From the NCBI RefSeq assembly GCF_000013905.1, contig NC_007969.1:1650001-1682000 (forward strand): DNA of 32,000 bases, given 5' to 3'. Both the position numbers and the translations under genes were made by a program. The notes below the pieces were generated by a model. It had not been told where the DNA came from. It saw only the letters and a program-made list of their open reading frames with translations, and made no database searches. Source of the DNA: Psychrobacter cryohalolentis K5 (GTDB lineage: Bacteria > Pseudomonadota > Gammaproteobacteria > Pseudomonadales > Moraxellaceae). Below, one piece after another: positions 1 to 28,819 of this stretch; position 1 is the stretch's first letter, and every line of letters starts with the position of its first letter.

Positions 1-1584
1 GCGGTCGATGGCGCTGATTTAAATCCTGTCCTACAAGATTTCGGTCTGATTATTCATCCGCCCATGTTATATATGGGCTATGTGGGTATGGTAGTGCCTT
101 TTGCATTTTGTATGGCGGCATTGTGGGAAGGGCGTTTAGATGCTGCTTGGACACGCTGGTCACGTCCATGGGCGCTCGCGGCTTGGGGATTTTTGACCAT
201 TGGTATTGCACTGGGCTCGTGGTGGGCCTACTACGAGCTTGGCTGGGGCGGTTGGTGGTTTTGGGATCCGGTAGAGAACGCCTCGTTTATGCCTTGGCTT
301 GTCGGCTTAGCATTGCTGCATTCATTAGCAGTCACTGAAAAGCGCGGGGTGTTTAAAGCATGGACCATCATGCTGGCTATTTTCGCCTTTGCCTTAAGCT
401 TGCTTGGCACGTTCCTGGTACGCTCTGGAGTCCTTACCTCAGTGCATTCGTTTGCCGCTGATCCGACGCGTGGTTTGGTCATCTTAGCTATTCTTGGCAT
501 TATCATCGGTAGTGGTCTATTAATGTTTGCCGTTCGCGGTTGGCGTTTAACCGTTGAAAGTCAATATCAGCTGATTTCACGTGAGTCCTTTTTAGTGATC
601 AATAACGCCATCATTTTGATTGCAACCTTAGTGGTGCTGCTCGGCACCCTCTATCCTATTATCGCTGATGCCTTTGGTTTAGGACAAGTGTCCGTTGGCC
701 CTCCTTATTTTAATGCATTATTTGTACCTTTAACGTGGCTGTTATTAATAGCTATGGGTATGGGCTCAAATATTCGCTGGAAAAAAGACACCCGTCCACT
801 ACTGGGTATAGGCATGGTCATCGCCGTTAGTAGCTTAGTATTAGCCGCCATTATTACTTACTTTGTTAATCCATCGTCTATGCTTAATATTGGTGTGACT
901 TTAGCCGTTAGCTTTTGGGTACTGCTATGGATGGCAGTTGATTTTAAAGATAAAACTAAGAATGCGCCTAATTTTTTTAACGGTTTGCGGCAGTTGCGTC
1001 TGAGCTATTGGGGTCAACAGACTGCTCATATTGGCGTATTGGTTGCTGTCATTGGCATAGCCTTTACTAGTAGCTTGAGTATTGAGCGTGACGTAGCAAT
1101 GGGTATTGGCGATACAGTCAATGTTCAAGGTTACGATTTTGAAGTAACTGAATTTTTTGAAATAAAGGGTAGTAACTTTGATGCAACGCAGGCGCAAGTC
1201 GTGGTATCCAAAAACGGTCGTGAAGTGGCGAAACTGAATCCAGAAAAGCGTACTTATATCATTAGCACTATGCCGACCACTGAGGCGGCCATTGATGCTA
1301 GCCTAATGCGCGATGTTTATGTCGCACTGGGCGAACCTATTGCCGATGGTAGTAACCAATGGGCATTAAGGATTTATGTAAAACCATTAATTCGCTGGAT
1401 TTGGTTAGGGGCAATTATCATGGCTCTAGGTGGATTAATTAGCATGCTTGATAAACGATACCGCATCAAAAAAGTTAAAGCTCCATTGCTAGTTACTGGT
1501 GATCTGGCTACTGATGGAGTCAATGAGGTAGCTATTGAGCAGGCAATCTCAGCATCGACGATGTCGACACTAAAGGAGAAATAA
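1..1584 (+). CDS. ccmF: Cytochrome c-type biogenesis heme lyase CcmF, C-terminal part (5' end upstream of window)
   Basis: Frame 1 is open from nt 1 (AVDGADLNPVLQDFGLIIHPPMLYMGYVG...), so the listed ORF 64..1584 is only the part after the first in-window Met. Trp-rich heme-handling block WGGWWFWDPVENASFMPWL and many TM helices. Followed by ccmG-ccmH-ccmI in canonical order. Confidence 0.93.
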   Translation, partial: AVDGADLNPVLQDFGLIIHPPMLYMGYVGMVVPFAFCMAALWEGRLDAAWTRWSRPWALAAWGFLTIGIALGSWWAYYELGWGGWWFWDPVENASFMPWLVGLALLHSLAVTEKRGVFKAWTIMLAIFAFALSLLGTFLVRSGVLTSVHSFAADPTRGLVILAILGIIIGSGLLMFAVRGWRLTVESQYQLISRESFLVINNAIILIATLVVLLGTLYPIIADAFGLGQVSVGPPYFNALFVPLTWLLLIAMGMGSNIRWKKDTRPLLGIGMVIAVSSLVLAAIITYFVNPSSMLNIGVTLAVSFWVLLWMAVDFKDKTKNAPNFFNGLRQLRLSYWGQQTAHIGVLVAVIGIAFTSSLSIERDVAMGIGDTVNVQGYDFEVTEFFEIKGSNFDATQAQVVVSKNGREVAKLNPEKRTYIISTMPTTEAAIDASLMRDVYVALGEPIADGSNQWALRIYVKPLIRWIWLGAIIMALGGLISMLDKRYRIKKVKAPLLVTGDLATDGVNEVAIEQAISASTMSTLKEK

Positions 1585-2247
1585 ATGACTATGTCGAATA
1601 ATACTCCTGAGCAAAAAGATAGCCAAAACAGTAAGCAGCGTAACCCAAAGACAATGAAAAAAAAGCAGACGAAGCTATGGTTCTTAATTCCGCTTATCCT
1701 CTTTTTTGGTTTGGTAGTTATATTGTACATGCGCTTAGGTAAACCAACAGACATTGTGACCAATACCGCTCTTGAGCGTCCGGTTCCTACCTTTGAGCTG
1801 CCGTTATTAGCAGATACTACCCGTACTATCACCAATGATAATTTGCCAGATAAGCCGTTTTTACTTAATGTTTGGGGCTCATGGTGCCCAACTTGCGTTA
1901 TTGAGCATCCGTTTTTAATGCAACTAGAAGAGCGCGGCGTTGATATCGTTGGTGTGAATTATAAGGATGAGATTGGTAATGCGCTCAGTTACTTAAACCG
2001 AGGCGGTGATCCATTTTCTATGTCTATTCAGGATTCATTGGGTCAGTTTGCTCTAGACTTAGGCATAACTGGTGCGCCCGAAACCTTTGTTGTGGATGGA
2101 GATGGCATCATTCGTCAGCATATTGTTGGTGAGATTAATGAAGCCAATTGGCAACAGCGTGTTAAGCCGTGCCTGACAGTACTTAATAAGGCTAATAAGA
2201 ACAACGATAGTCCTGATCTCATTCAGGTTGAGGAGATGTGCAAATGA
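1585..2247 (+). CDS. ccmG: Thiol:disulfide interchange protein CcmG/DsbE (periplasmic thioredoxin of cytochrome c maturation)
   Basis: ATG 1585 lies 7 nt after AAGGAG (1572-1577) and abuts the ccmF stop. N-terminal TM anchor, then a thioredoxin fold with WGSWCPTC (CxxC) and a GAPETFVVD block. Confidence 0.93.
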   Translation: MTMSNNTPEQKDSQNSKQRNPKTMKKKQTKLWFLIPLILFFGLVVILYMRLGKPTDIVTNTALERPVPTFELPLLADTTRTITNDNLPDKPFLLNVWGSWCPTCVIEHPFLMQLEERGVDIVGVNYKDEIGNALSYLNRGGDPFSMSIQDSLGQFALDLGITGAPETFVVDGDGIIRQHIVGEINEANWQQRVKPCLTVLNKANKNNDSPDLIQVEEMCK

Positions 2248-2813
2248 ACGTTACTCGAATAAGAGCTCCTCAACTAAAACCCAATATAGTTTTAAAAATA
2301 GCAAGCTTAATACTAGCGTGTCTGCTTAACATGACGGCAAACGCAGCTATTGACGTATACGATTTTGACTCACCACAGCAAGAAGCTCAGTATCGTGGAT
2401 TAATAGAAGAGTTTCGCTGCCCAAAATGCCAAAATCAAAACCTTGCAGCCTCTGATGCACCGATTGCACAGGATCTAAAGCAAAAAGTCTATGATTTAAT
2501 TAAAGATAGACGTAGTGATGCTGAAATACGCGTCTATATGCAAGAGCGCTACGGTGACTTTATTAGCTACAAGCCGCCTATGCGACCATCAACATGGATC
2601 CTATGGTTTTTTCCACCACTATTATTGCTCGTCTTAATCATTGGTTGGTTTTGGCAAAGTAAGCGTCGCCAAGTTGTTGCCCGTGGTCAAAGCGGCGTCA
2701 CAGTGAACAGTACTGCTGCCTTGACCTCTACGGAAAAGGCTGAGCTTGATCGTCTATTATCGCAAGCTGAGAGTGTCGACCACGACATTACTAGCCTAGA
2801 GGACAAAAAATGA
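2244..2813 (+). CDS. ccmH: Cytochrome c-type biogenesis protein CcmH
   Basis: The ORF track starts at GTG 2238. ATG 2244 sits 8 nt after GAGGAG (2230-2235) and overlaps the ccmG stop (2245-2247). Signal peptide, RCPKCQNQNLAASDAPIA (CcmH RCxxC motif) and one C-terminal TM helix. Confidence 0.9.
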   Translation: MNVTRIRAPQLKPNIVLKIASLILACLLNMTANAAIDVYDFDSPQQEAQYRGLIEEFRCPKCQNQNLAASDAPIAQDLKQKVYDLIKDRRSDAEIRVYMQERYGDFISYKPPMRPSTWILWFFPPLLLLVLIIGWFWQSKRRQVVARGQSGVTVNSTAALTSTEKAELDRLLSQAESVDHDITSLEDKK

Positions 2814-4090
2814 CTCTATTTTCTACTTTTGGCTTATTTGTAACTCTAAGCTTGCTGATTGCTCTTATATTTGCGCTGATTGCTATTATGCCATGGCTAC
2901 GAGCACCGCGTTTGCAGTCCAAACCAATAGACAATCAACTGCTAGATATTAATGTTGCAGTATTTCGCGAACGTTTAGCTGAGCTACAAACAGATAAAGA
3001 CAGCGGTACTATTAATAATAGCCATTATCAAAATCAAAAGCTGGAACTGGAGCGTCAGCTATTAGATGCGCAGCGTCAGATAACACCTATGGTCACCCCT
3101 GATGTCAAAAGCCGTTTAATTGTCGCAGCTTGGATCCCAATATTGGCTGCAATGGCGTATTTACTAATAGGCAATCGTACGCCCGTGTTTGATTTGTGGA
3201 CAGCTGAGGACAAAGTAGGACAAGTGGCTGACGACCTATTGACAGCTAAAATTGACAAGCCGCCATCATGGGCGTTTGAAGATGGTCGTCAACTGATTAG
3301 CGCCATGCAAACCAATGTTCATCGTAATGCTGATGATCCTAATCGCTGGATGCGCCTATCCGAGCTTTTCTTATCTATGGAGGCAACTGATTCTGCGCTG
3401 GAAGCCTTATCTCGTGCCTATCGTTTAGCTCCTGAAAATGAAGAAATCGCCACCACTTATGCTCAGACTAGCTTTTTTGTTAATGAAGGTCAGTTAGACG
3501 CTAATATTCGCCGTGTATTACAAGCTATATTAGCTAAAAATCCGCAGCATGAACGGGCTCAGATGCTCATGGCAATGGGTGAGACTCGTAGTAGTAACTT
3601 TGCCCAAGCGCAAGGTTGGATTAAACGCTTACAAGGCAGCATTGTGGCCAAACCAGGTGATCATACTAAAGCTTTAGCAAGCTTAGATGAGTTGAGTAAC
3701 TACGTTAGCACGCAAGAAAAGCAAGCGCTAGAAGGTATTGACGTGACAGTGAAAATTAACGCTAATTTATTACCGTTAGTGAAAGCTGATGATGTGTTGT
3801 TTGTTGCGATACGTGACGTTAAAGGAGGTCCACCGTTTGCCGCCAAACGTTTACCCATTAGTGTTATTGAGCAAGGTGAGGCCAGTATCCGCTTAAGCAA
3901 TCTTGATGCGATGATGCCAGATCGCACGTTAAATTCAGCTCGTAGTGACAAAACTCAGTTAGCAGTCGTTGCTCGTATTAGTCATAGCGGTAATGCCATA
4001 GCAGAGTCAGGCGACTTATCGGGTAATCCGATAGTGATTAGTGCTGAACAGACTCAGGTTAATGTTGAAATCAATCAACAGATTCCCTAA
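2810..4090 (+). CDS. ccmI: Cytochrome c-type biogenesis protein CcmI/CycH (TPR-like periplasmic domain)
   Basis: ATGA start/stop overlap with ccmH at 2810-2813. N-terminal TM segments followed by a long helical repeat domain. Its position after a stand-alone ccmH matches Pseudomonas-type ccm operons. Confidence 0.8.
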   Translation: MTLFSTFGLFVTLSLLIALIFALIAIMPWLRAPRLQSKPIDNQLLDINVAVFRERLAELQTDKDSGTINNSHYQNQKLELERQLLDAQRQITPMVTPDVKSRLIVAAWIPILAAMAYLLIGNRTPVFDLWTAEDKVGQVADDLLTAKIDKPPSWAFEDGRQLISAMQTNVHRNADDPNRWMRLSELFLSMEATDSALEALSRAYRLAPENEEIATTYAQTSFFVNEGQLDANIRRVLQAILAKNPQHERAQMLMAMGETRSSNFAQAQGWIKRLQGSIVAKPGDHTKALASLDELSNYVSTQEKQALEGIDVTVKINANLLPLVKADDVLFVAIRDVKGGPPFAAKRLPISVIEQGEASIRLSNLDAMMPDRTLNSARSDKTQLAVVARISHSGNAIAESGDLSGNPIVISAEQTQVNVEINQQIP

Positions 4091-4231
4091 TAAAAAATTA
4101 TTACCGTAAGTTTCATAATACCAGAGCGGTAAGTGGAGCAGTTTTTAAAAGTGGCGCTATTAATAGTCGTATACTAAAAACATATACGTTTAACATTGTT
4201 CATTGTATAAACACAGATAAAGAAAACAACT

Positions 4232-4939
4232 ATGACTGAATCTACCGACAGATTAGATAGTACTAAATTGAATAGCGTTGAATCGGCTAGTACTAATATT
4301 GCTGACAATAAAGTACCTATAGCTGTGAGTAGTACTCATCAATCAATTGACTCTAAAACCATGAATCATACGCCTAAAGCTATGTACGTAACTTCAGGCA
4401 ACTCGATAACACCTAAAGGTAAGTTGAATAAAATGCCAAAAATGGTTGCCAATGGCAGTCGCGCTTTTATCTGGTATTTGTTGGCGATAATGGTATTAAT
4501 ACTTGATCAATGGACTAAGTGGTTGGCCCAAACCAAATTAGCGTTCAATGACCCCGTACCGGTCATTGAACCATTTCTCAACTGGACACTCGCTTATAAC
4601 TATGGGGCAGCATTTAGCTTTTTAGCCGACGCTGGCGGTTGGCAGAAATGGTTTTTCTCAGGCTTAGCTTTTATAATGGCTATCTTTTTAACGGTTTATT
4701 TAATCAAAGCGCCACGTGCAGCCAAGCTATTGTCCATGGGGTTAGCCTTAATGCTCGGTGGTGCGATTGGCAACTTAATCGATCGTTTAAGAATTGGTAA
4801 AGTGGTTGACTTTATCCATGTGCATTATGCTGATGTCTGGAATTATCCTATTTTCAATGTTGCAGATATAGGTGTCTGTGTCGGTGTCGCATTGATTATA
4901 ATTGACATGATATTTTTAGAAAGTAAGCGTAATAAATAA
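4232..4939 (+). CDS. lspA: Lipoprotein signal peptidase II (LspA) with a Ser/Thr-rich N-terminal extension; alternative start ATG 4433
   Basis: The C-terminal ~165 aa carry SPase II blocks (LDQWTKW, NYGAAFSF, GGAIGNLIDR, VVDFI, FNVADIGV). The first ~67 codons are low-complexity. An internal Met at 4433 (MPKMVANGSR...) would give a conventional length. Confidence 0.9.
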   Translation: MTESTDRLDSTKLNSVESASTNIADNKVPIAVSSTHQSIDSKTMNHTPKAMYVTSGNSITPKGKLNKMPKMVANGSRAFIWYLLAIMVLILDQWTKWLAQTKLAFNDPVPVIEPFLNWTLAYNYGAAFSFLADAGGWQKWFFSGLAFIMAIFLTVYLIKAPRAAKLLSMGLALMLGGAIGNLIDRLRIGKVVDFIHVHYADVWNYPIFNVADIGVCVGVALIIIDMIFLESKRNK

Positions 4940-5184
4940 GCACATTGATGCCGATTATCACAAACAAAATGAACTAGCGTCGTAGTCACTCTATACGGAA
5001 AAATACTTTTTATACTTGAGTATGTTTATAAAATGTGAACTGGAAGGTAATGTATGACTGGTATAGGTACTCACTCATTTTAGGTCTTAAAACCCAATAC
5101 TTAAAAGCTCTGCGTAGAGCCATTATTATAGAGACATTGAATAATCCATAAATTCTTTATTGATAATAACAAAAGGAAAATATA

Positions 5185-5547
5185 GTGTCACAGGCTCAGC
5201 CAACTATTGAAAAAATTCACAGCCTTAGAAAAAAACAAGAGACCGCGTTAAAAAGTCTTACCCTTATAGGCTACCTAGAAGGCACCTCTTTCTTATTATT
5301 GCTCTTCATCGCCATGCCACTAAAATATATGATGGACATTCCAGAAGGTGTGAAATATATCGGTATGGCGCACGGTGTACTATTCATTGTCTATATCGTA
5401 GTACTTGTAGGCACAGCTATCAAAGTAAAAATTCCTCGTTGGGCAATACCTGCGGGCGTACTCGGATCACTCTTACCATTTGGCCCGTTCATATTTGATC
5501 ATTTACTAAAAAAGAATCTACAAAAAAGCGTAAGTAAAGAAGCCTAG
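5185..5547 (+). CDS. Small 4-TM membrane protein, DUF3817/YdzA-like
   Basis: GTG 5185 is preceded by AAGGAAA. Blocks IGYLEGTSFLLLLFIAMPLKY and GMAHGVLFIVY resemble the DUF3817 family as I remember it. No search was run. Confidence 0.65.
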   Translation: MSQAQPTIEKIHSLRKKQETALKSLTLIGYLEGTSFLLLLFIAMPLKYMMDIPEGVKYIGMAHGVLFIVYIVVLVGTAIKVKIPRWAIPAGVLGSLLPFGPFIFDHLLKKNLQKSVSKEA

Positions 5548-5850
5548 AACAAGCTCTGCTACAAATGCTACAAACGTATATTATTACTCAAGATTATTTT
5601 TCCTAACTAAATTACAAGCCGCCATCACTCATCATGGCGACAAATGAATAACATTGAGCAGAAATTAATCACAATAAAACTTTGATTCAGACCCAATATG
5701 AATAGTCTCACACTCTAGTTACTTTTCGAACTTATCTTACATACTATCGACAAACCCGTCTTGTTTAAAAGCTAAACAGGTTTTGTCATCCGCGATGGCT
5801 TTCCTGTTATCGTAGGGTATATCCCAGCGGAACCATTTAAAAGGCATCAA

Positions 5851-5871
5851 AAACCGATTAATAGACCACCT
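5851..5871. repeat. Left copy of a 21-bp inverted repeat AAACCGATTAATAGACCACCT
   Basis: The reverse complement of 8481-8501 is AAACCTATTAATAGACCACTT, identical at 19/21 positions. It lies 51 bp upstream of the ATG of the decayed serine recombinase gene. Confidence 0.75.
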
Positions 5872-5917
5872 AAAATAGACTGGTGTAGTGGAACTACTTA
5901 TAACAGACTATTTTAGG
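5869..5917. promoter_or_regulatory. Extended dyad symmetry (10-bp perfect arms CCTAAAATAG / CTATTTTAGG, inner GTAG/CTAC) between the left repeat and the recombinase relic
   Basis: Arms at 5869-5878 and 5908-5917 are exact reverse complements. An inner 4-bp pair lies at 5885-5888/5894-5897. The element overlaps the last 3 nt of the 21-bp repeat and ends 5 nt before ATG 5923. Confidence 0.4.
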
Positions 5918-5922
5918 TGTTT

Positions 5923-6088
5923 ATGTTTATCAGAGCGTATCTTACTTAGAGCGTCAACCAAAGAGCAAAATGCCAAATGTGCCAAGAACAAGCTCATACA
6001 GTTTGCTACTGATCATGGCCTTAAAGCTGCTGTGTTCTATATAGAAAATGGATCAGGGGCGACACTAGTACTTACAAAACTAATATAG
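5923..6088 (+). pseudogene. Serine recombinase (resolvase/invertase) N-terminal relic, frameshifted and truncated
   Basis: ATG 5923 gives MFIRAYLT*. Removing one copy of the tandem CTTACTTA (5941-5948) restores MFIRAYLRASTKEQNAKCAKNKLIQFATDHGLKAAVFYIENGSGATL. This aligns with the N-terminus of the intact recombinase at 7738-8328 (MTVRIYVRASTKDQ...YVEHFSGTKL). The frame ends at 6088, and a weak remnant (DVILKYS) may continue to ~6140. Confidence 0.7.
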
Positions 6089-6120
6089 CTGATAACTATC
6101 ATAGCCAAAGAAGCGATGTG

Positions 6121-6144
6121 ATACTCAAATACTCAAATACTCAA
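6121..6144. repeat. Tandem repeat (ATACTCAA)x3, running into the palindrome CTCAAAAT-T-ATTTTGAG (6140-6156)
   Basis: Read directly from the sequence. It lies inside the decayed recombinase remnant. Confidence 0.6.
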
Positions 6145-6274
6145 AATTATTTTGAGCATCAGTATCCTTTGATACGGAATGTTTTAGGTATTCTGTTAGC
6201 CTAAATAGAGTCAAGAAAAATATCGATTACTTTTCAAGCTATGGTATATCAGCCGATTCTCTTATAGTCGAATC

Positions 6275-6291
6275 ATCATCGCAACGATGAT
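6275..6291 (-). terminator. Possible terminator hairpin ATCATCG-CAA-CGATGAT downstream of the 336-aa gene
   Basis: Perfect 7-bp stem with a 3-nt loop, ~85 nt past the stop at 6373 on the minus strand. Flanks are A/T-rich but there is no clean U-tract. Confidence 0.3.
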
Positions 6292-6372
6292 ATTTATAAT
6301 AGCTTAATTATCAAGGTAGACATCCTTGCATAGAGCGTGGTTTGCTTTACATATTTAAATTGAACAGCCCAA

Positions 6373-7383
6373 TTAAGGAGTATCTGGGCTATTAACAGGT
6401 TTGTAGGTTGTAAAATATCCAGTCCATACTTTGCCATAGGTAGTTTTAAATAAGACCTTTTCGGTAGGATATATAATGATCTCTTTATCTAATCTATGAT
6501 TGCATTCCTTGATGGCACATAATTTAACAAAGATGTATTTGTCATTAAAATACTCTATCTCGTAGTTCTTGGTTTTAAAATCGTTATATATTACTGCCTC
6601 TAAGGTTTTAGTGTTATATAAATCAGCAGGCAATATAAAGCTTGCACTAAATGCTTTGATTAACAGATAACAAATAAAGATGGCTATTGCTATGCCTGCT
6701 AATATTGACCAGTAAATAGGCTTTCTATATTTATCTACAAGGGTGCCCATACGGTCTTTAATATTATCCGAATTAATACCATCTTGAGCGTACTTCAATC
6801 CAATCAGCATAACAGCGTCAAGTACATAAAACATAAAGCCCGAAATAAAAAAACTTACAAGTAAAATGGTAACAATAGGGGATGTGGGGAACATACCTGC
6901 AAATAGCTCACTAATTAAATAAATAATAAGAACTAGCATTATAGGTATGACGATAAGCATCTTTTTTATGTGAAAATTTAAGTTTTTTCTAAGCTTTTTA
7001 ACAAATTCTTCATCTTCAAGCCCTTTGACTTTGTTTTCAAAAGCACTTTTTAACAAACCTATTACTGCCTTCCCCATAACAATTATCAGAACGATTAAAA
7101 ACAGTATAAGTATGCCGTCAACTGGTATTTGAGTGACAGAAAAAAACCTAATATAAGCAACATTTATACTTGATAATTCTAAGATCTGCCATAAAGCTCC
7201 TAAAAAAGATGGCAACAATAAAACAAGGCTTATGTTGTCCAGCACCCATTTAACCTGCTCCCTTAGTGTCTTCTTTGTGACCTCGGCTTTTTCATCAAGG
7301 CTATAAGTTTCTGGCACAAATAAGCCATTATCTTTTTTATGCCAGGCTGTGCCTTTAAACTCTTCTCTATTTGGGTCTGACAT
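6373..7383 (-). CDS. Orphan integral membrane protein (about 5 TM helices, soluble N- and C-terminal domains), function unknown
   Basis: 336-aa ORF, strongly AT-rich. Hydrophobic helices include ISLVLLLPSFLGALWQILEL, VDGILILFLIVLIIVMGKAVIGLL, MLIVIPIMLVLIIYLISELFAGMF, IVTILLVSFFISGFMFYVLDAVMLIGL and IYWSILAGIAIAIFICYLLIKAF. The ~85-aa C-terminal domain contains CAIKECNH. I recognise no family. Confidence 0.7.
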   Translation of the reverse strand: MSDPNREEFKGTAWHKKDNGLFVPETYSLDEKAEVTKKTLREQVKWVLDNISLVLLLPSFLGALWQILELSSINVAYIRFFSVTQIPVDGILILFLIVLIIVMGKAVIGLLKSAFENKVKGLEDEEFVKKLRKNLNFHIKKMLIVIPIMLVLIIYLISELFAGMFPTSPIVTILLVSFFISGFMFYVLDAVMLIGLKYAQDGINSDNIKDRMGTLVDKYRKPIYWSILAGIAIAIFICYLLIKAFSASFILPADLYNTKTLEAVIYNDFKTKNYEIEYFNDKYIFVKLCAIKECNHRLDKEIIIYPTEKVLFKTTYGKVWTGYFTTYKPVNSPDTP

Positions 7384-7737
7384 AGAGCACCTTAATCTCT
7401 TAAAATGAAGAAAATAAGGTTATAAGCGACCTTATGTTACTTCTCTCGTAGTAAGATTGATTCATACAAGAGGACTGGTAAAATGTTTACTATTCTAAAG
7501 TATTTCTGCCCAGTTTTTCTAGCTTTATCATTAGTGAGCTTAAAGCCTATGCGGCAAACATCCCAACCATAAGATACTGTGTTTTAACACGTCCACATAG
7601 TAAAAAAGTTGGTGTCTCTATAAATAAATATTTCTTACCTCGCGTGTAAAACCTTATATATCAGCTATTTATGAACGAAAATAAAATATAGCACTCATAA
7701 TAATAATGATGAGCTAATATTTAAAATACCTCAGCTA

Positions 7738-8328
7738 TTAGTCCTGCTTTAATACACGATAAACGGTAGCTACCCCAACACCAACCGCCTTAGCGATTTC
7801 CTCTTTTGTCATATTGGCTTGACTGTCTAATTCTCTAATACGATTGTGTTTCGTTGTATTAGGCTTCTTACCAGTGGGCTTATAGCCACTGTTAGCCAGT
7901 CCCTGCTTAATACGCTCTCTACGCTTGTCGTTATCAAGTTTTGCCATCGTTGCTAATAAGTCGATCAACATATGGTTAATCACTGTTAGGATATCACCTG
8001 TCATGCCACCACTCACCGTATACGTGGTTGGTAGATCAGCCACCACCAATCGTAAGCCTTTGTCTTTGATACGCTGCTTTAGAATTGCAAAATCATCTTG
8101 AGATAGCCGGCTTAATCTATCCACGCTTTCAACTAGTAGAATATCGTCTTTTTCAGCATCCTTTAGCAGCTTGGCTAAAGCTGGTCTATCGAGCTTCGTA
8201 CCACTGAAATGCTCAACATATTCAATATAGTTATCATCATAACTTGTACTGAAAGCTACTAACTCAGCTAATGCTCTGGTAGCGTCTTGATCCTTAGTGC
8301 TGGCTCTCACATAAATACGAACGGTCAT
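7738..8328 (-). CDS. Small serine recombinase (resolvase/invertase family)
   Basis: Catalytic N-terminus YVRASTKDQ, VESVDRLSR block and a C-terminal HTH EIAKAVGVGVATVYRVLK. The 196-aa length is typical of resolvase/Hin-type enzymes. GAGGTGG Shine-Dalgarno just upstream of the ATG. Confidence 0.9.
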   Translation of the reverse strand: MTVRIYVRASTKDQDATRALAELVAFSTSYDDNYIEYVEHFSGTKLDRPALAKLLKDAEKDDILLVESVDRLSRLSQDDFAILKQRIKDKGLRLVVADLPTTYTVSGGMTGDILTVINHMLIDLLATMAKLDNDKRRERIKQGLANSGYKPTGKKPNTTKHNRIRELDSQANMTKEEIAKAVGVGVATVYRVLKQD

Positions 8329-8351
8329 AACGCCACCTCTATTACTTAGAC

Positions 8352-8439
8352 TTAATAATTAATGTTCATTAATAATAGCAAGATATTACTATCATTTAAT
8401 AATACAAAAAAGTCTAATGATAGATAGATTATCATTTAA
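8352..8439 (-). promoter_or_regulatory. Candidate recombinase promoter plus a res-like repeat cluster
   Basis: Minus-strand TTGCTA (8381-8376), 18-nt spacer, TATTAA (8357-8352). Directly upstream are two direct copies of TATCATTTAA (8390-8399 and 8430-8439) and an inverted partner TAATGATA (8415-8422). Confidence 0.3.
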
Positions 8440-8480
8440 AGCTTTTATGCTTTAGGTATAGTGAAACGGTAGATTGTTTT

Positions 8481-8501
8481 AAGTGGTCTATTAATAGGTT
8501 T
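8481..8501. repeat. Right copy of the 21-bp inverted repeat (AAGTGGTCTATTAATAGGTTT)
   Basis: Matches 5851-5871 in inverted orientation at 19/21 positions. It lies 152 bp upstream of the intact recombinase start (8328, minus strand) and 431 bp upstream of the lipoprotein gene. It contains the 10-bp palindrome CTATTAATAG. Confidence 0.75.
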
Positions 8502-8932
8502 GAAGGGTGAAATATTTGGTTTTCTTGAGGTATACTTCTAATAATGAATATACAGATATTGATATTGATGACTATAAAGAGCAAGACATATAAGTTGAGA
8601 TAGAAAATATTGATCAGTACACGCTTCCTTATAAGTCTTACACTACTTTATACCAGTTTAGGATTTATCTATTGTCAAACTAAGAATTCTGTAAAACGGC
8701 ACAAATGAGAGGTCTAACGAACAGCATCAGCAATATTTAGCGCTGAAACGGCAAGAATCTAAAGTAGATGTAAGTGATGAACGTCCAAAACGCTGAGGTG
8801 GTTTGACTTCTTATTAGTATAAAGAATTAAAAATTAAGCGTAATATAGTTTGTGTCTAAATAATAAACAATAGGATGTAATGCAGAGATAAATCAGGTAA
8901 GAAGCACTATACAATATATGGGAGATAACTAG

Positions 8933-9907
8933 ATGAAAATATTAATAGTCATTGCTACTTTGTGTATAACTTCCTGTGCGAGCATAACCTCTTTTGAAAA
9001 TAAAAATTCGAGTCATGTTCACGGCTTGTCTTATTACATGCCTAAAAAAGATATTGTAGTTAAAGTTACTATAGAAGCTAGTAATATAACTAAGGTTGCG
9101 CTTGAAACGACACCATCATATCCTGATTTATCAAAAAGATATGTGCTAAACCACAATAAAAATATAATGGGTAAAAACCTTTCAGATATATCGATAACTG
9201 AAAGCGGATTATTAACCACTGTCACATCAAAGACTACTAGTAACGTTACAGATATATTCAGTAATCTAGCAACTAGTTATGGTAATTTTACCAAACCGCC
9301 TTTAGGGTCTGGTTTGTTTCCGCCGATCGGCTGTAATACTGATACAGAACATGTTTTTATATATAAATCGGAAGGTGAATATAACCCATGTGGTCTTTCA
9401 GTAACTATTAAAAAAGAAGGGCCGGAGAATAAAGGGGTAGAAAATACCGAGGAGGTGGAAGTATCTAGTTCTGGCATATTTTATCGACAAGACGAACCTT
9501 ATAGAGTAACGATAAATAGTGGTAGTACGATTGGGGATCTAAATTTTTCATCGATAGTATTTTCACCATCGTATTCCACAACATCATTTCTTCCAATATC
9601 TAAATCATTTTTTGCCAATAATAGCGCAGAATTTACTTTTGAAAAGGGTATTCCAACAAAATATAAGCAAGATGTAGATGGTGAAGCTTTAGCAGTAGCA
9701 AAAATTCCGTCTGCAATTATAACATCAGTATTTACTGCAGTTGGTTCAGTATATAGCAGATCTTCAACTACCAATCAGAACGAAATTTCCGCCTTAGAAC
9801 AGACGATTAAATTAGAACTCGTAAAACAGAAATATGCTGCTTGCTTAGAAGCAATTAAGAGTAAAGATACTAAGTTAGTGAGTGATTTAGGCTGTAATAG
9901 CAATTAA
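8933..9907 (+). CDS. Orphan lipoprotein, function unknown
   Basis: Signal peptide MKILIVIATLCITSC with a lipobox-like I-T-S-C, GGGAGA RBS upstream, Ser/Thr/Asn-rich mature part, AT-rich. I recognise no family. Confidence 0.7.
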   Translation: MKILIVIATLCITSCASITSFENKNSSHVHGLSYYMPKKDIVVKVTIEASNITKVALETTPSYPDLSKRYVLNHNKNIMGKNLSDISITESGLLTTVTSKTTSNVTDIFSNLATSYGNFTKPPLGSGLFPPIGCNTDTEHVFIYKSEGEYNPCGLSVTIKKEGPENKGVENTEEVEVSSSGIFYRQDEPYRVTINSGSTIGDLNFSSIVFSPSYSTTSFLPISKSFFANNSAEFTFEKGIPTKYKQDVDGEALAVAKIPSAIITSVFTAVGSVYSRSSTTNQNEISALEQTIKLELVKQKYAACLEAIKSKDTKLVSDLGCNSN

Positions 9908-10015
9908 AAATATACATATTTGGTTTAATATTATTAGTAATATGTTCTTCAAAATACGGAATATATTTCCACGAATAAATCTAGTACTCAAGATATGAAC
10001 CGCCCTGATTATATT

Positions 10016-10055
10016 AGAGGCTGATTGACGTGTGTCAAACAGCCTCTTTGCTTTA
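10016..10055 (+). terminator. Rho-independent terminator after the lipoprotein gene
   Basis: AGAGGCTGATTGAC-GTGT-GTCAAACAGCCTCT (10016-10047) forms a 14-bp stem with one mismatch, followed by TTGCTTTAT. Confidence 0.7.
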
Positions 10056-10063
10056 TAGATTAC

Positions 10064-11256
10064 TCAAAATTTCCCACCCACGCCTTTAAACTTCTCAACG
10101 AAAGCCGCAATTTTCTGCAAAACACTTTGCTTCTTGGTTAAGTACTGCGGATTCAGTGGACTCAGTTTGGGCAAAATAGCATTTAACTCTGTGCCGTTCT
10201 CACTGGCGTACTCACGCTTTAAAGAAGCGGTGATATAACGCTTAGCAGCATCTTCATTCAGGTTTTCAGCGGCAATCATGTCTTTCACTTCACGTTGCTG
10301 CTCTACCTGAGCATAGCTAAAGAAAGCATCGATAATGCTGGATTTATCAGGGATGCTATCTAAGTTGGTTTGATTGATGAAATCGACTACTAGGCTCTCT
10401 TTGGCACGGTTGCCAAGGCTTGCCCGAATCAAAGGACGTACTTCCTCAACTAGGGCAGACTTGTCCTTGGTGTTTTTATTATGCTCAAAAATTAATCCGA
10501 GTATGTAATCAAGATTAATTTCCTGTGATTTGAGCAGATCTATCTCGAAAACCACGTCGTCCCAATCAATCGAAGACTCTCCTTGCTGGTCAGCTGCTTT
10601 TTCACGACGTAACCAATCACGTAATCGTTATAGGTAGAACGGTAATCTTGTACGGTACGTTCAGCAGGCACTCTAATAGCTTGCATAGCGGCTAAGTCAT
10701 CATCGTTTAGGTAATGCTCATCTTTAAACGTCTCAACAGCGTCAGCATCGGTCACATCCAAGTCTTGCAGTGCTTTTAGGCTTGCAAACTCATCATAGTT
10801 TTGTAATATATTCTCGACACGTAAATACTCCCCGAATAACTTAGCAAAGTCCTTCTTATCAGACTCTTTCACAATCTCATCAGGGTTAGGGAAGCGTTGT
10901 TGCAGCTCTTTGACCACTTCCAAATAACCGCGTCGTGCTTTGCCTGTGGCGATATCAGTAAAACCTTCTAAGTATTCTTTATAGCTCTTCTCTAGCACCA
11001 CGTTTTTAGTGTTTCTATCACCAAACAAGGTGATGGCGTCAATGGTCGCTTTTTCTAAGTCTCGAAAGGTCACAATGTGGCCAAATGTCTTGGTAGCATC
11101 AAAACCCGTCAAGAACATGCCAACGACAACCAGTAAGTCCACTTCTTGATTAATGACGCGCCCTGCAAGGTCGCGGTAGTAATTTTGGAAGGATTTGCTG
11201 TCTACGCCATAGTTGGTTTTAAACATTGCGTTATAGTCCAATAATAGACTTTTCAT
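10064..11256 (-). pseudogene. hsdR: Decayed type I restriction enzyme R subunit (C-terminal ~400 codons only; frameshift and internal deletion)
   Basis: ORFs 10540-11256 and 10064-10555 are two pieces of one gene. The helicase block [14 protein letters not shown] is joined directly to [11 protein letters not shown], so the segment that normally holds helicase motif VI is missing. A frame change near 10620 restores ...[45 protein letters not shown]. The nuclease and most of the helicase N-terminus are absent. Confidence 0.8.
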
Positions 11257-11545: not shown

Positions 11546-13135
11546 ATGGCTAAAACACCTGCGAACAAAAAAGATAAAACAGACAATGGCAATTTTGAAG
11601 AAGCCCTTTGGGATGCTGCCAACAAGCTACGAGGTAGCGTCGAATCATCAGAATATAAGCACATCGTCCTTAGCCTAATTTTCTTAAAATTCATCAGTGA
11701 TACTTTCGAGCAGCAGCGCCAAAAACTGATCGATACAGGCTATGAAAAGCATATCAACATGGTGCAAGCTTATACCAAAGATAACGTGTTCTACTTGCCA
11801 GAGGAGAGCCGTTGGAGTTTTATCCAGCAGAATGCTAAGCAAGAAGACATCGCGCTTAAAATCGACACGGCGCTCAGTACCATCGAAAAGACCAACCAAT
11901 CATTGAAAGGCGCATTGCCTGACAACTACTTCTCACGTCTAGGCTTAACGGCCAGTAAGCTTGCCGCCTTGATTGATGTGGTCAATAACATCGACACTAT
12001 CGGTAATCCAGAAGAAGACACGGTAGGGCGCGTGTACGAGTATTTCTTGGGTAAGTTTGCTGCAACTGAAGGTAAAGGCGGTGGTGAGTTCTATACGCCT
12101 AAGTCTGTGGTCAATCTGATTGCAGAAATGGTTGAGCCATATCAAGGCAAAATCTACGATCCGTGCTGCGGCTCGGGCGGTATGTTCGTCCAGTCCATCA
12201 AATTCATCGAGAGTCACCACGGCAATACCAAAGATGTGTCTATCTATGGGCAAGAGTACACCAGCACGACCTACAAGCTCGCTAAGATGAACCTTGCCAT
12301 TCGTGGTATCTCTAGCAACTTGGGTGATGTGGCTGCCGATACTTTCTTTAAAGATCAGCACGAAGACCTAAAAGCCGATTTCATCATGGCAAACCCACCT
12401 TTTAACCAAAAGGATTGGCGCGCCTCTGATGAGCTGGTCGATGACCCACGCTGGGCAGGGTATCCGACACCGCCTACGGGCAATGCCAACTATGCATGGA
12501 TATTGCACATGATATCCAAGCTCTCTGAGCATGGAACTGCTGGTTTTGTACTTGCCAATGGTTCGATGTCTACCACCACCAGTGGTGAGGGTGAGATACG
12601 CGAGCAAATCATCAAAAACGATCTGGTCGATTGTATGATTGCGCTACCGGGTCAGCTGTTTTATACCACGCAGATTCCGGTGTGTTTATGGTTTATCAGT
12701 AAAGACAAACAAGCTACGTCAGCTGATAGTAAGGCAAAGGGGTTGCGTAACCGTAGCGGTGAGACGCTGTTCATTGATGCCCGTAATATCGGTGCGATGA
12801 TTGACCGTACGCATAAAGAGTTTTCTACTGATGATATCGAAGCGATTGCCAAGACTTATCATGCATGGCGCGGTGAGAAAGAAGCGGGCGGCTATGAAGC
12901 CTACGCAGATGAAGCAGGCTATTGTAAATCCGCCAGTCTAGACGATATCAAAGCCAATGACTATGTGCTGACGCCTGGGCGTTATGTTGGGGCGGCAGCT
13001 ATCGAAGATGATGGCATTCCGTTTGAGACTAAGATGCTGGAGCTAAGCCAAACGCTATATGCACAGATGCAAGAGTCCGAAAAGCTAGATGCGACCATTC
13101 GTCAGAACTTGGAGGTATTGGGTTATGGCGAGTGA
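11546..13135 (+). CDS. hsdM: Type I restriction-modification system methyltransferase subunit HsdM (N6-adenine)
   Basis: HsdM-type N-terminal helical domain (EEALWDAANKLRGSVESSEYKHIVLSLIFLKFISD), AdoMet motif DPCCGSGGMF and catalytic NPPF (IMANPPFNQKDW). Confidence 0.95.
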   Translation: MAKTPANKKDKTDNGNFEEALWDAANKLRGSVESSEYKHIVLSLIFLKFISDTFEQQRQKLIDTGYEKHINMVQAYTKDNVFYLPEESRWSFIQQNAKQEDIALKIDTALSTIEKTNQSLKGALPDNYFSRLGLTASKLAALIDVVNNIDTIGNPEEDTVGRVYEYFLGKFAATEGKGGGEFYTPKSVVNLIAEMVEPYQGKIYDPCCGSGGMFVQSIKFIESHHGNTKDVSIYGQEYTSTTYKLAKMNLAIRGISSNLGDVAADTFFKDQHEDLKADFIMANPPFNQKDWRASDELVDDPRWAGYPTPPTGNANYAWILHMISKLSEHGTAGFVLANGSMSTTTSGEGEIREQIIKNDLVDCMIALPGQLFYTTQIPVCLWFISKDKQATSADSKAKGLRNRSGETLFIDARNIGAMIDRTHKEFSTDDIEAIAKTYHAWRGEKEAGGYEAYADEAGYCKSASLDDIKANDYVLTPGRYVGAAAIEDDGIPFETKMLELSQTLYAQMQESEKLDATIRQNLEVLGYGE

Positions 13136-14486
13136 TTGGGTAAAAACAACTCTTGGAGAAATAGTAAAGCTGGGCAATGGAATAATTCAGACAGGACCAT
13201 TTGGTAGCCAATTGCATGCCTCTGATTATGTTGATGAGGGGATTCCAGTAATTATGCCTCTTAATATTATCAATAATAAAATAGATTTATCTGGTATAGC
13301 TAGAATAACTAAAGAAGATGCAGAAAGACTATCAAAGCATTTAGTGAAAAAGAACGATATCGTATACAGTCGCCGAGGTGACGTAACTAGAAAAGCGTTG
13401 ATTACTGAACTTGAAGAAGGGATGTTTTGTGGTACTGGATGCTTACTTGTAAGACCTGGTAATAGCATAGATGCTCGTTTCTTGACCTATCACTTAAGTT
13501 CGCCTATAAATCAAGAATGGATAATCAGACACGCTGTTGGCGCTACTATGCCTAATCTTAATACAGGAATACTCAAGCGCGTTCCTTTGAACATACCAAG
13601 TTTGGATACTCAAAAAGCAATTGCCCATATTCTTGGTTCTTTAGACGACAAAATCGAGCTAAACCGCCAAATGAATGAAACGCTAGAAGCGATGGCACAG
13701 GCATTGTTTAAAAGTTGGTTTGTTGATTTTGATCCGTTGATTGATAATGCGCTGGCGGCTGGTAATGCTATTCCTGATGAATTTATCGAACGTGCTGAAC
13801 AGCGTAAGAAGATTGAGAAAAAAGACAATTCAGATATTCAGGACTTATTCCCTGATGCGTTTGAGTTTGCGGAAGAAATGGGTTGGATTCCGAAGGGGTG
13901 GGAAAATGGAATACTTGCTGATATTTGCTCGTACGGAAAAGGCAAAATAAATACATCAGAACTCACTTTAGAAAACTATGTTTCTACTGAAAATATGAAT
14001 AAAGAGAAGTCAGGAATTTCTCATGCAGCGAATATCGCGAGTACCAATCAAGTTCCAAAGTTTTCTGTAGGACAAACCTTAATCTCTAATATACGTCCAT
14101 ATTTCAAAAAAATATGGCTTGCTAGTTTCAGCGGTGGTCGGTCAAATGATGTCTTGAGCTTTCAAGCTCATAACTCTGTAGCTAATGAATATTTATTTAA
14201 TCTTCTTTATCAGGATTCCTTTTTTGACTATATGACTGCAACATCAAAAGGAACCAAGATGCCACGCGGTGATAAAGCAGCCATTATGAGCTGGTCAGTA
14301 GCAATACCTTCATCAAGATTAATGGAAGAGTTTTCGGAATTAGCAAAACCAATGTATCTCGCAAATAATCTTCGTTCATTACAGACTATTGAATTAGCCA
14401 AACTCCGCGATACCCTCTTGTCTAAGTTAATGTCAGGGGAGTTGTGTATCCCAGATGCTGCCAGACTTGTGGATGAAATAATATAG
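13125..14486 (+). CDS. hsdS: Type I restriction-modification specificity subunit HsdS (two target recognition domains)
   Basis: ATG 13125 lies 9 nt after GGAGG (13111-13115) and overlaps the hsdM stop (13133-13135). Central conserved helix LDDKIELNRQMNETLEAMAQALFKSWFVDF and distal helix ELAKLRDTLLSKLMSGEL flank two variable TRDs. The track's upstream start at 13089 is unlikely. Confidence 0.92.
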   Translation: MASDWVKTTLGEIVKLGNGIIQTGPFGSQLHASDYVDEGIPVIMPLNIINNKIDLSGIARITKEDAERLSKHLVKKNDIVYSRRGDVTRKALITELEEGMFCGTGCLLVRPGNSIDARFLTYHLSSPINQEWIIRHAVGATMPNLNTGILKRVPLNIPSLDTQKAIAHILGSLDDKIELNRQMNETLEAMAQALFKSWFVDFDPLIDNALAAGNAIPDEFIERAEQRKKIEKKDNSDIQDLFPDAFEFAEEMGWIPKGWENGILADICSYGKGKINTSELTLENYVSTENMNKEKSGISHAANIASTNQVPKFSVGQTLISNIRPYFKKIWLASFSGGRSNDVLSFQAHNSVANEYLFNLLYQDSFFDYMTATSKGTKMPRGDKAAIMSWSVAIPSSRLMEEFSELAKPMYLANNLRSLQTIELAKLRDTLLSKLMSGELCIPDAARLVDEII

Positions 14487-14538
14487 CTTTTGACAGTAAA
14501 TATTTCTCTCAAAAATATAGTAATTAATGGAGTTTAGC

Positions 14539-15408
14539 ATGAAAAAGCTTTTACTTAGTTTGGCGCTCAGCCTAAGCGTTCTATCTGCGACTCCTGCAAT
14601 AGCTGCCGCTCCCGCTTTTTCTGTCAGCCAAATGGCTCAGGTAAAAATCAAAGACTTAAGCTTTAAAGAAGTCATGCGTCAGTTTTATAGTGGTCAGATG
14701 AGACCTACCTCCGTCAATGATGAATATATTGAATCGATGCCAAATATCGGTTTAGGTCAAGTTGACAGCAATGGAGCAAGAATAGTTGCTTTAATGCATC
14801 CTATGGGACTTTATGATAACGCAAAAGGTGAACCACGTTATTTAGTGACCATTGAAAAGGTTATCGTTTATGATGAATCATCTGAATACTGTGAATCTTG
14901 CGGCTCAAAGGCAGATTTATATAGTTTTAAAAGACTAAATAATGGACAGTTTCAATTGATAAGCAGAACACCGGAGAGCGTAGCTTTTTATGACAGATGG
15001 GGCACAATGAACCTTCAGGACAATGACATTCAAAAAACTATACAGCTGTTAGGGACAAACTTAGTAGGCAGTGTTTTTAAGAGCGGTTATATGACTCTTG
15101 GCGAAACGAACAGTTGGTGGACAGTACTACACCTGCCTGAGAATGATTTTATTAATGTTTATGCTTTGGGTGATGCTGGTTCAGATAATGACGGTCAAGA
15201 CGATGAAGATTCCCCTTTATATTATAATTATGAAGGGATCGTTAAAGTAATGCCTGAAAACGCTGCTTATTATCCCATTATATTGACTTATAAAGGCATA
15301 CCTCCTGATGATCCTGAGCGTCCTAACTTCGTTAATAAAAGCTTCGTTATGAAGTTCAATCCAGTAAAAAAAGTTTATGAGACGACATCCAGCTTTGCAG
15401 CTTTGTAG
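14539..15408 (+). CDS. Secreted (Sec signal peptide) protein of unknown function embedded between hsdS and hsdR
   Basis: ATG 14539 lies 6 nt after GGAG. MKKLLLSLALSLSVLSATPAIA/AAP is a textbook signal peptide with an AxA site. The mature part has CESC and an acidic GSDNDGQDDEDS stretch. Gaps of 52 nt and 71 nt to the neighbouring hsd genes show no hairpin. Confidence 0.75.
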   Translation: MKKLLLSLALSLSVLSATPAIAAAPAFSVSQMAQVKIKDLSFKEVMRQFYSGQMRPTSVNDEYIESMPNIGLGQVDSNGARIVALMHPMGLYDNAKGEPRYLVTIEKVIVYDESSEYCESCGSKADLYSFKRLNNGQFQLISRTPESVAFYDRWGTMNLQDNDIQKTIQLLGTNLVGSVFKSGYMTLGETNSWWTVLHLPENDFINVYALGDAGSDNDGQDDEDSPLYYNYEGIVKVMPENAAYYPIILTYKGIPPDDPERPNFVNKSFVMKFNPVKKVYETTSSFAAL

Positions 15409-15479
15409 GGTTCACATTGCCGTAAGCGATTACTAATGTTATTGAAAGATGCTCTATTTATCTAAAAAAGGACTTATAG

Positions 15480-18662: not shown

Positions 18663-18949
18663 TTATAATTATACGGTTTTTAACAATTGAAACTTATGTC
18701 GTTTTTATACTAATGTCTAGAGTGCTATTTCAAAGCTTGGTTATCAACAATCAAGCTAATGAAAACTAAAATGATAAATAAATTTTTGAACATGGAGAAT
18801 ATTAGGGTTGATTTTTTAAAGGTGTCTGCTGACACCGACTGTTAAAACCTTCAGGATATTAATGTTTTATTTGCTGCTAGAACTACTTTTATTATGTAAT
18901 CATTTGCATATAAGTTTAAATCAGGATGATTCTGATTAAGAGGGAAATT

Positions 18950-25573: not shown

Positions 25574-25578
25574 TTATA

Positions 25579-28537: not shown

Positions 28538-28819
28538 ACCATTAACCGTATAAGCTAAATAATTATGAATAATTTAACTTATAAACATTGCGCGATTACT
28601 GGAGAACTGTTCTTTTATTTAGATCCCTTGATAAATAAGGCTGTTTGACATATTGATGAACTTATTAACTGATAGACCTAGTTTAACATAATATACATTA
28701 TGCGAAAACAAACCAACGGTTTTATAATTTGGGCACATCATATTTTGTATAATGCTATTTGCTAATCATCCCATTGATTTCTATCAGCAGTTATTTGATG
28801 TCGATATATTGGTTTCTAA

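Follow-up and report, generated by a model that had tools for sequence, protein, structure and literature searches.

A 32,000-nt stretch of the Psychrobacter cryohalolentis K5 chromosome (NC_007969.1, positions 1,650,001–1,682,000; hereafter the window, in whose numbering coordinates are given) contains a 2.65-kb segment bounded by two inverted 21-mers, each beside the start of a serine recombinase gene. On what we consider the probable explanation, the 21-mers represent the best-conserved block of a longer module, IR_RES, which is known from the plasmid pP62BP1 and present here as two inverted copies, and the arrangement in the window is a fixed relic of plasmid-derived recombination cassettes. 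Active switching at this locus appears unlikely from the sequence comparisons described below.

The left 21-mer, AAACCGATTAATAGACCACCT at 5851–5871, matches AAACCTATTAATAGACCACTT, the reverse complement of 8481–8501, at 19 of 21 positions. This agrees with the first-pass annotation of this DNA, which had also given the correct distances to the recombinase starts (51 nt to the ATG at 5923 and 152 nt to the start at 8328). A repeat finder extends the match to 25 nt (23/25, 92%) and ranks it first among the inverted repeats within 4900–10200. The two copies are:

5851–5875, plus strand: left copy of the 25-nt conserved core (the 21-mer and 4 nt more), module positions 34–58.
8477–8501, minus strand: right copy of the 25-nt conserved core, from the repeat finder and a degenerate search.

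The degenerate search with the 21-mer, allowing up to 3 mismatches, returned only these two sites in the 32 kb, with 0.00 expected from 100 dinucleotide shuffles. A mononucleotide shuffle of two 200-nt upstream intervals, which is a cruder test, gave z ∼5, with the observed score reached in at least 1 of 500 shuffles. Outside the 25-mer, both copies also have a TATA(C/T)C at the outer end and an AACCA block, with an identical 33-nt spacing between the outer end and the 25-mer. This outer stretch is in register and partly identical between the copies (15/33), and thus homology extends beyond the 21 nt. The first-pass annotation had singled out a palindromic core, CTATTAATAG, which is perfect in the right copy but imperfect in the left, and which the family does not conserve. 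The family consensus at this position is CTATTAACAG, and CTATTAATAG was rejected as a functional core, being present in none of 22 distinct full modules.

The 21-mers are part of a module of ∼91 nt with the consensus TATACC-CCAAGGGAACCAG-…-AAACCTATTAACAGACTACTTAAAA-CAGACTG…GGAACCATCTATAACAGAC. Its copies in the window, from a nucleotide profile (nhmmer) and repeat searches, and a repeat inside the left copy are:

5818–5908, plus strand: left IR_RES module, full 91 nt (model positions 1–91, E = 3e-19).
8534–8475, minus strand: right IR_RES fragment (model positions 1–60 only, E = 5e-7), fused to the upstream region of the intact recombinase gene.
6160–6248, minus strand: third, degenerate IR_RES-like copy, with TATACC at 6248–6243 and a core-like CTAACAGAATACCTAAAA, oriented as the right copy.
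5867–5887 / 5899–5919, plus strand: internal inverted repeat within the left module (repeat finder), with 21-nt arms that are 86% complementary.

The left module ends 14 nt before the ATG at 5923, and the right fragment lies 146 nt away from the intact gene. The degenerate copy falls below the profile threshold in the window; its syntenic counterpart in relatives gives a significant match (E = 2e-6, model positions 42–91). In the internal repeat, the first arm overlaps the end of the 25-mer and the second covers the AGGTG ribosome-binding site of the dead left gene; it might form an RNA hairpin or serve as a protein-binding dyad.

The profile that hits the window also matches both inverted repeats of pP62BP1 (E = 3.5e-25 and 1.4e-18; locus L096, 1484–1574 and 2301–2219). 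In that plasmid, 83-bp inverted repeats named IRL_RES and IRR_RES flank ORF19, which encodes a 210-aa serine recombinase, and similar sequences were noted in several Psychrobacter chromosomes and plasmids, with no function or crossover point assigned (Lasek et al. 2012, PMC3346939). The window and pP62BP1 pairs belong to one sequence family, and in both, inverted copies enclose a gene for a small serine recombinase and one of them ends shortly before the start codon. However, the pP62BP1 pair encloses a single intact ORF19-type gene (∼0.8 kb), whereas the segment in the window comprises an ORF19-type remnant, the 60-nt right copy, an intact recombinase of a second subfamily and cargo. We refer to the ORF19-type subfamily as left-type and to that of the intact enzyme as right-type. 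Full-length representatives of the two are 38% identical, and a count over the N-termini in the window gives 20/53 (38%), within the 35–40% estimated by hand in the first-pass annotation. The genes and the upstream region of the intact one are:

5923–6088, plus strand: remnant of a left-type serine recombinase gene (the 210-aa type of pP62BP1 ORF19), frameshifted and stopping after 53 codons.
7738–8328, minus strand: intact right-type small serine recombinase, 196 aa, with a catalytic domain and a C-terminal HTH_7 domain.
8329–8474, minus strand: conserved, res-like upstream region of the right-type gene, ∼145 nt, with TAAAYGATA / TATCATTAG half-sites.

The remnant aligns with the N-terminus of the ORF19-type gene. 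Its frameshift is a tandem duplication of CTTA at 5941–5948, and removal of one unit restores the reading MFIRAYLRASTKEQ…; the gene is intact in the plasmid relatives L013 and L096 (pP62BP1). In left-type genes the module spans from TATACC to ∼14 nt before the ATG and is therefore the upstream region of the left-type gene. Among related loci, a convergent left-type gene of near full length is frameshifted in L078–L089, L014, L018, L024 and L086, at about codons 91–94 in one locus group and about 66–70 in a second, and is intact only in L092 and L093. These frameshifts could represent recurrent decay or the inheritance of two old lesions.

The 196-aa enzyme has the size (∼180–210 aa) and domain order of a small serine recombinase, with an N-terminal serine catalytic domain (PF00239, residues 5–146, E = 2.9e-22) followed by a C-terminal helix-turn-helix (PF02796 HTH_7, residues 153–194, E = 2.1e-7). 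The sequence retains R8-A-S10 and D70-R71-L-S-R74. Its best match among solved structures is Sin/Bin3 (E = 1.7e-9), with gamma-delta resolvase marginal (E = 4.6e-4). Thousands of relatives exist, and the best 120 are all at least 90% identical; among those, Psychrobacter is the only organism named apart from a single Acinetobacter johnsonii plasmid, and plasmids carry two of the named entries. Every match to a named NCBIfam recombinase subfamily is far under its cut-off, including the Mpi invertase model (33 bits against 272). An IS607-type transposase was rejected, since that group has a MerR-like helix-turn-helix at the N-terminus and the catalytic domain after it, the reverse of the order here, and since the score with the IS607 model, 34.6 bits, is under the cut-off of 110.

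The upstream region of the right-type gene is conserved in 68 of 68 distinct upstream sequences. A profile search found no second copy in the window that could act as an inversion partner, the only match being 8474–8330 (E = 1e-39). Since this region is distinct and single-copy, the right 21-mer belongs to a fragment of a left-type module lying just outside the right-type enzyme's own site. The two are joined directly after the 25-mer (…CTTAAAA|CAATCTACC…), and the truncated form of the right module is shared by only one (L085) of 80 genomic loci collected for enzymes 87–94% identical to the intact recombinase. The alternative offered in the first-pass annotation, two cassettes that each brought their own site, is the correct account of where the sites came from. 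Its proposal that the intact enzyme acts on the 21-mers is not supported, as the module belongs to the dead left-type gene and the enzyme's own region is present once.

Of the 80 loci, 34 have the core motif in the 400 nt that precede the right-type gene (36 by profile), in a single orientation. It lies ∼231 nt from the ATG in nearly all, with one at 266 and one at 168. The first-pass annotation had staked its reading beforehand on the 21-mer being present beside homologous recombinases, and this is where it is found; its view of the 21-mer as a conserved recombinase-associated element, and not a by-product of recent duplication, agrees with this recurrence at fixed orientation and distance. 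The module is directly upstream of the right-type gene in 36 loci, an inverted copy is downstream in 29, and both are present in 13. A near-complete convergent left-type gene occurs in 2 loci, and partial or frameshifted left-type matches, mostly convergent, in 22. The conserved architecture consists of two convergent recombinase genes with a module outside each and a variable cargo slot between them.

To locate the joints, every module copy was oriented alike and the sequence outside it was listed, for the 80 loci and several plasmids. Thirty-seven distinct, unrelated flanks stop at exactly one nucleotide, …GGG|TATACC. The flank base next to the module (−1) is G in 28 of the 37, the flank ends have the consensus TTT(T/A)A(G/A)(G/A)G, and many of them contain a GGTTCC-like hexamer at −13 to −8. 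Mirror matching of flank to module peaks when the axis is placed in the middle of TATA (0.37, compared to 0.20–0.28 at other offsets). Together, flanks and module form a dyad of ∼30 bp, GGTTCC…TAGGG-TA|TA-CCCYAAGGGAACC, with a palindromic central AT. The geometry is that expected of a serine recombinase crossover site, as in site I of Tn3 and gamma-delta. IR_RES homology, fixed register and orientation, and sharp joints shared among loci are direct observations, as are the two cassette orientations in relatives and the single one in this lineage that are described below. Three candidate crossover sites lie in the window:

5805–5834, plus strand: candidate crossover of the left module, GGG-TA|TA-TCCC followed by GGAACC, centered at 5819/5820, with core TATATC instead of TATACC.
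8518–8547, minus strand: candidate crossover of the right IR_RES fragment, with TA|TA at 8532/8533 and a degenerate arm, AAAACC for GGAACC.
8446–8471, minus strand: candidate crossover of the right-type enzyme's own site, TACCGTTTCAC-TA|TA-CCTAAAGCATA, centered at 8458/8459.

At the TATACC joint of the right-type site (8455–8460), 19 classes of left sequence combine with 20 classes of right sequence, giving 13 four-gamete quartets, and 11 of the 20 best-ranked plasmid megablast alignments end at window position 8461. Because homology breaks at the TA|TA dyad, ∼33 nt outside the 21-mer, crossover is likely to take place there. The first-pass annotation had regarded the 21-mer itself as the crossover site; the breakpoints fall instead at 5819/5820 and 8532/8533, and at 8458/8459 for the intact enzyme's own site, so that crossover probably occurs at the TA|TA cores rather than inside the 21-mer. 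We infer the exact position of cleavage, the part played by the 21-mer and which enzyme acts on IR_RES.

We propose that the IR_RES module behaves as a res-type site. Its outer end would form one arm of the dyad-symmetric crossover site, GGTTCC…TAGGG-TA|TA-CCCYAAGGGAACC, and its interior, including the 21-mer, would most likely hold accessory recombinase-binding and promoter/operator sequence. The left module still lies before its own gene, now the 53-codon frameshifted remnant, and the right module is a 60-nt fragment outside the separate, complete res-like region of the 196-aa enzyme. Recombination at TA|TA joints would repeatedly have swapped flanks and inverted cassettes across the genus. 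In copies associated with right-type genes, the alignment places the 21-mer as the left half of a 31-bp near-palindrome, ATTAACAG-N15-CTGTTAAT. Intact left-type genes carry a perfect TATAAT 16 nt after the (C/T)AGAC(C/T) of the core, and a promoter scan found TAGACT-16-TATAGT in the right repeat of pP62BP1. A promoter scan of the window found nothing at the repeat copies, and promoter-like matches in the region are no more frequent than in shuffled sequence. The most economical reading is that the 21-mer would be an accessory recombinase-binding site overlapping the promoter of the gene, as in classical res sites.

Comparison of relatives provides evidence that the joints have been exchanged. 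In the window and in about 20 loci, among them L011, L014, L024, L044, L047, L072 and L078–L089, the DUF3817 flank (…CCTGTTATCGTAGGG|) meets the module on the downstream side of the right-type gene. In L015, L020, L025/L094, L026, L048, L049 and L069 the same flank meets the module immediately before the right-type gene, and the cassette has the opposite orientation. Three more flanks are joined to the module 5′ of the right-type gene in one locus and 3′ in another. Plasmid pPspP11G5a and a plasmid of strain WY6, both complete, encode the same recombinase protein (WP_011959997.1), and their recombinase-Fic segments lie opposite ways beside a block of cytochrome c maturation (ccm) genes, lspA and the DUF3817 gene; the inverted homology starts at TATACC. 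The pattern indicates past inversion and exchange of flanks within the genus. In this evolutionary sense the first-pass annotation was right to propose inversion, as segments between inverted modules have inverted in relatives.

That the segment is an active invertible switch, in which the 196-aa enzyme now flips the 2.65 kb and changes the sequence upstream of the lipoprotein gene, is very improbable. The inverted repeats do enclose an intact recombinase gene, a right-type gene stands between inverted IR_RES copies in 13 of the 80 loci, both orientations exist among relatives, and staphylococcal Bin inverts segments between inverted resL and resR (PMC3276174). However, all contigs examined with this type of cassette, which come from varied samples, show a single orientation. 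The identical enzyme has one gene order and orientation at 10 of the 10 places listed (24 contigs), and a 99%-identical enzyme at 9 of 9 (22 contigs). These 19 distinct places (46 contigs) comprise two complete genomes together with marine, sewage and other metagenomes, and both orientations are seen only between distantly related replicons, at none of the 19. The predicted inverted joint, …ATCGTAGGG|TATACCTCAAG…, was not matched in metagenome contigs. A broader pattern with the same flank recovered three contigs only, none with the window's own module, and hence this negative carries little weight. Decay is also apparent, with the right module lacking positions 61–91, the left core reading TATATC and the right arm reduced to AAAACC, and the enzyme's own conserved site is present once in the window. 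Thus the comparison of orientation that the first-pass annotation had in mind yields both orientations among relatives, but one in the enzyme's own lineage. Inversion as such is borne out for relatives, whereas present-day inversion by the intact enzyme is unlikely here, given the single orientation at the 19 places, the truncated right module and outer cores that deviate from consensus. The deletion or resolution that it also considered is not the expected product, because the module copies are inverted.

Two other explanations were considered. The inverted modules may instead be terminal inverted repeats, or arms of attachment sites, of a small mobile cassette that its own serine recombinase inserts into degenerate TTAGGG-TA-CCCTAA-like targets. 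Minimal units of module, recombinase gene and inverted module (0.8–1.2 kb) do occur beside several unrelated flanks and in either orientation, and conservation is strong in the arm on the module side and weak in that on the flank side, as in attL and attR. We nevertheless judge this unlikely. One flank pairs across the cassette with many partner flanks, so that a single insertion cannot account for the joints; an empty target site was not found; a good mirrored GGTTCC arm is present in many of the flanks, as expected of complete sites; and the enzyme has the domain order of resolvases, unlike IS607 transposases. The modules could also be purely regulatory, comprising a promoter/operator and leader of the recombinase gene, with flanks varied by insertion sequence (IS) activity or homologous recombination. 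The fixed distance and orientation relative to the start codon fit this, as do the TATAAT of intact left-type genes and the promoter-like match in the pP62BP1 right repeat. Yet such a role leaves unexplained why 37 unrelated flanks end at one nucleotide, the mirror symmetry of the joint and the inverted copies that follow a stop codon, and the promoter scan was empty at the window copies, with no more matches in the region than in shuffles. A solely regulatory module is accordingly quite improbable.

Several points weigh against the relic explanation and the crossover site proposed with it. The crossover position is read solely from comparative breakpoints, and the flank half-sites are weakly conserved, which would also fit a mobile cassette inserting into degenerate targets. 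Block conservation among the 22 distinct modules (TATACC 0.98, GGRAACCA 0.88, 25-nt core 0.90, 3′ GGAACCA…ACAGAC 0.94, variable stretch 0.70) is partly built in at TATACC, the core and A[CT]AGAC, because the alignment was seeded with a pattern requiring TATA[CT]C, the core and A[CT]AGAC. No two genomes were found that share both flanks and differ in the direction of the cassette, and the inversions were therefore deduced one joint at a time, plus one plasmid pair. In that pair, WY6 and pPspP11G5a, which is the best available, inversion is not cleanly seen at both joints because an IS3 element interrupts the far end in WY6. Several of the 13 right-type genes bracketed by inverted IR_RES lack a left-type remnant, and the right-type enzyme may therefore use IR_RES, which would make the inversion model of the first-pass annotation more plausible. 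Finally, the single orientation is drawn from assembled contigs, and inversion at low frequency may still occur.

By sequence, the closest relative of the repeats in the window is the pP62BP1 IR_RES pair. The closest mechanistic analogue is the staphylococcal Bin/Sin system, with resL and resR on beta-lactamase plasmids (Tn552), which likewise has two inverted res-type sites and related small serine recombinases, the flanked segment including the recombinase gene. However, the sequence relation is distant, the staphylococcal layout arose from transposon insertion into a res site, and flipping by Bin is experimentally documented (as cited in PMC3276174), whereas none was seen at the window locus. 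The sites described here resemble the res sites of Tn3 and gamma-delta and the RP4 ParA site in lying immediately 5′ of the recombinase gene with the probable crossover subsite gene-distal, and in having an A+T-rich palindromic core dinucleotide, repeated half-sites and a promoter probably inside the site. The left-type enzyme was placed in the SR_Res_par (RP4 ParA-like) group in the pP62BP1 study (PMC3346939). Classical res sites are direct repeats that lead to deletion, whereas the good modules in the window are inverted, the right-type site is single, and only the degenerate copy at 6160–6248 is parallel to the right copy. The subsite layout is also less defined; repeated half-sites and conserved blocks are present, and the comparative breakpoints suggest a crossover at the distal TATACC. 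The Hin, Gin, Cin and Pin switches use two inverted crossover sites of ∼26 bp, whereas the inverted sites of the window are embedded in modules of 60–91 nt. Hin-type switches also need both orientations in a population, in contrast to the one orientation at the 19 listed places (46 contigs).

The pdif sites of Acinetobacter plasmids are similar in being short and in delimiting variable cargo modules that are reshuffled between Moraxellaceae plasmids. They differ in being 28-bp XerC/XerD sites served by host tyrosine recombinases, whereas the sites in the window travel with their own serine recombinase genes. A pdif identity of the repeats was rejected, as the XerC/XerD pattern has no match at or near 5851–5875 or 8477–8501 and its only exact match is at 28683–28701. 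One loose match with one mismatch, ATAAGCGACCTTATGTTAC at 7422–7440 (plus strand), lies between the cargo and recombinase genes and is probably not meaningful, since ∼4 such matches are expected by chance in the window.

The segment is located between two different neighborhoods. To the left are ccmF, dsbE, ccmH, ccmI, lspA and a DUF3817 gene; to the right are a lipoprotein gene, fragmented and complete type I restriction systems, an SMC-like ATPase, an IS fragment and three tyrosine recombinase genes. The region is identical in record CP022043.2. The guanine-plus-cytosine (G+C) content falls at ∼5.55 kb from 0.42–0.47 in the ccm genes to 0.32–0.36, and parts of the region have matches on 48 plasmids from Psychrobacter, Acinetobacter and Moraxella. 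Two further features lie between the recombinase genes:

6121–6145, plus strand: 8-bp tandem repeat ATACTCAA (equivalent to AATACTCA), 3.1 copies; the repeat was predicted as parS in pP62BP1 (PMC3346939).
6373–7383, minus strand: cargo gene for a 336-aa predicted membrane protein with no family match.

The whole block at 5.8–8.5 kb appears to be plasmid-derived, in view of the G+C drop, the AATACTCA repeats and the frequency of the recombinase on Psychrobacter and Acinetobacter plasmids. The cargo slot, which holds the membrane protein gene in the window, holds a Fic gene in L011 and L094 and is empty in L012. Models of defense systems matched neither the cargo nor the lipoprotein. A search via a frequent homolog (P0035) for small circular cassette contigs returned fragmented Rep3-plasmid and IS contexts only. 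A known RNA element or tRNA attachment site was rejected, since the window contains no tRNA and the single Rfam match is sub-threshold and falls elsewhere than the feature.

The AATACTCA repeat differs in copy number between otherwise similar loci. It gives ∼18 overlapping register matches in L011 (pPspP11G5a, 3823–3967) and ∼11 copies in the WY6 plasmid (L094, ∼7370–7460), and P. cryohalolentis K5 plasmid 1 also has it, where a broken recombinase gene ends. The ccmF-dsbE-ccmH-ccmI-lspA-DUF3817 block, with a metal P-type ATPase upstream, is chromosomal here (64–5547). The ccm-lspA-DUF3817 block is also present on at least four Psychrobacter plasmids (L011, L012, L013, L094, L095), each time ending at the same nucleotide beside the recombinase module.

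Further to the right, two adjacent open reading frames (ORFs) are fragments of an EcoR124-type hsdR beside complete hsdM, hsdS and hsdR (10064–11256, minus strand, and 11546–18662, plus strand); the fragmented gene is a longer single ORF in L006 and L105. A 293-aa, secreted-looking protein that could not be annotated is encoded between hsdS and hsdR. The 883-aa SMC/AAA ATPase (18926–21577, plus strand) matches LmuB of the Lamassu defense system (E = 1.4e-20), with no obvious partner gene, and is followed by an ORF (21643–22449, minus strand) read as a candidate fragment of an IS256-type (mutator-family) transposase. A 238-aa protein (31171–31887, minus strand) matches the candidate defense family PDC-S23 (E = 4e-99) from profile position 95 onward; the gene may lack the N-terminal part, or its true start may lie further upstream. 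A canonical dif-like XerC/XerD site, TTTCGCATAA-TGTATA-TTATGTTAAAC (28680–28707, minus strand), lies ∼140 nt from the three tyrosine recombinase genes (462, 537 and 781 aa; 23228–28537 region). It could be a chromosomal terminus site beside an element of the recombinase trio, or a plasmid-type dif site.

The locus is a further member of a family noticed in 2012 without an assigned function, and is itself an ordinary relic. The comparison yields a concrete, testable proposal for the function of the family, namely that crossover takes place in a TA|TA core of dyad symmetry where the module has its outer end. The many flanks at one TA|TA core, the two cassette orientations, and the ccm-lspA block on plasmids as well as chromosomes form the pattern worth following up. 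We tentatively raise the possibility that IR_RES sites and their paired serine recombinases make up a genus-wide module-exchange system of Psychrobacter, a counterpart of the XerCD pdif modules of Acinetobacter. If so, recombination at TA|TA would move cargo genes between replicons and carry large blocks (metal ATPase, ccm, lspA and DUF3817 genes) between plasmid and chromosome, with the window as a chromosomal docking site. It would link the plasmids and chromosomes of cold-adapted Psychrobacter and shuffle cargo that includes Fic toxins, membrane proteins, and metal-resistance and cytochrome-maturation genes. Confirmation would explain the housekeeping-like ccm and lspA genes on several Psychrobacter plasmids, and would add a serine-recombinase route to the shuffling of modules by Xer sites in related bacteria.

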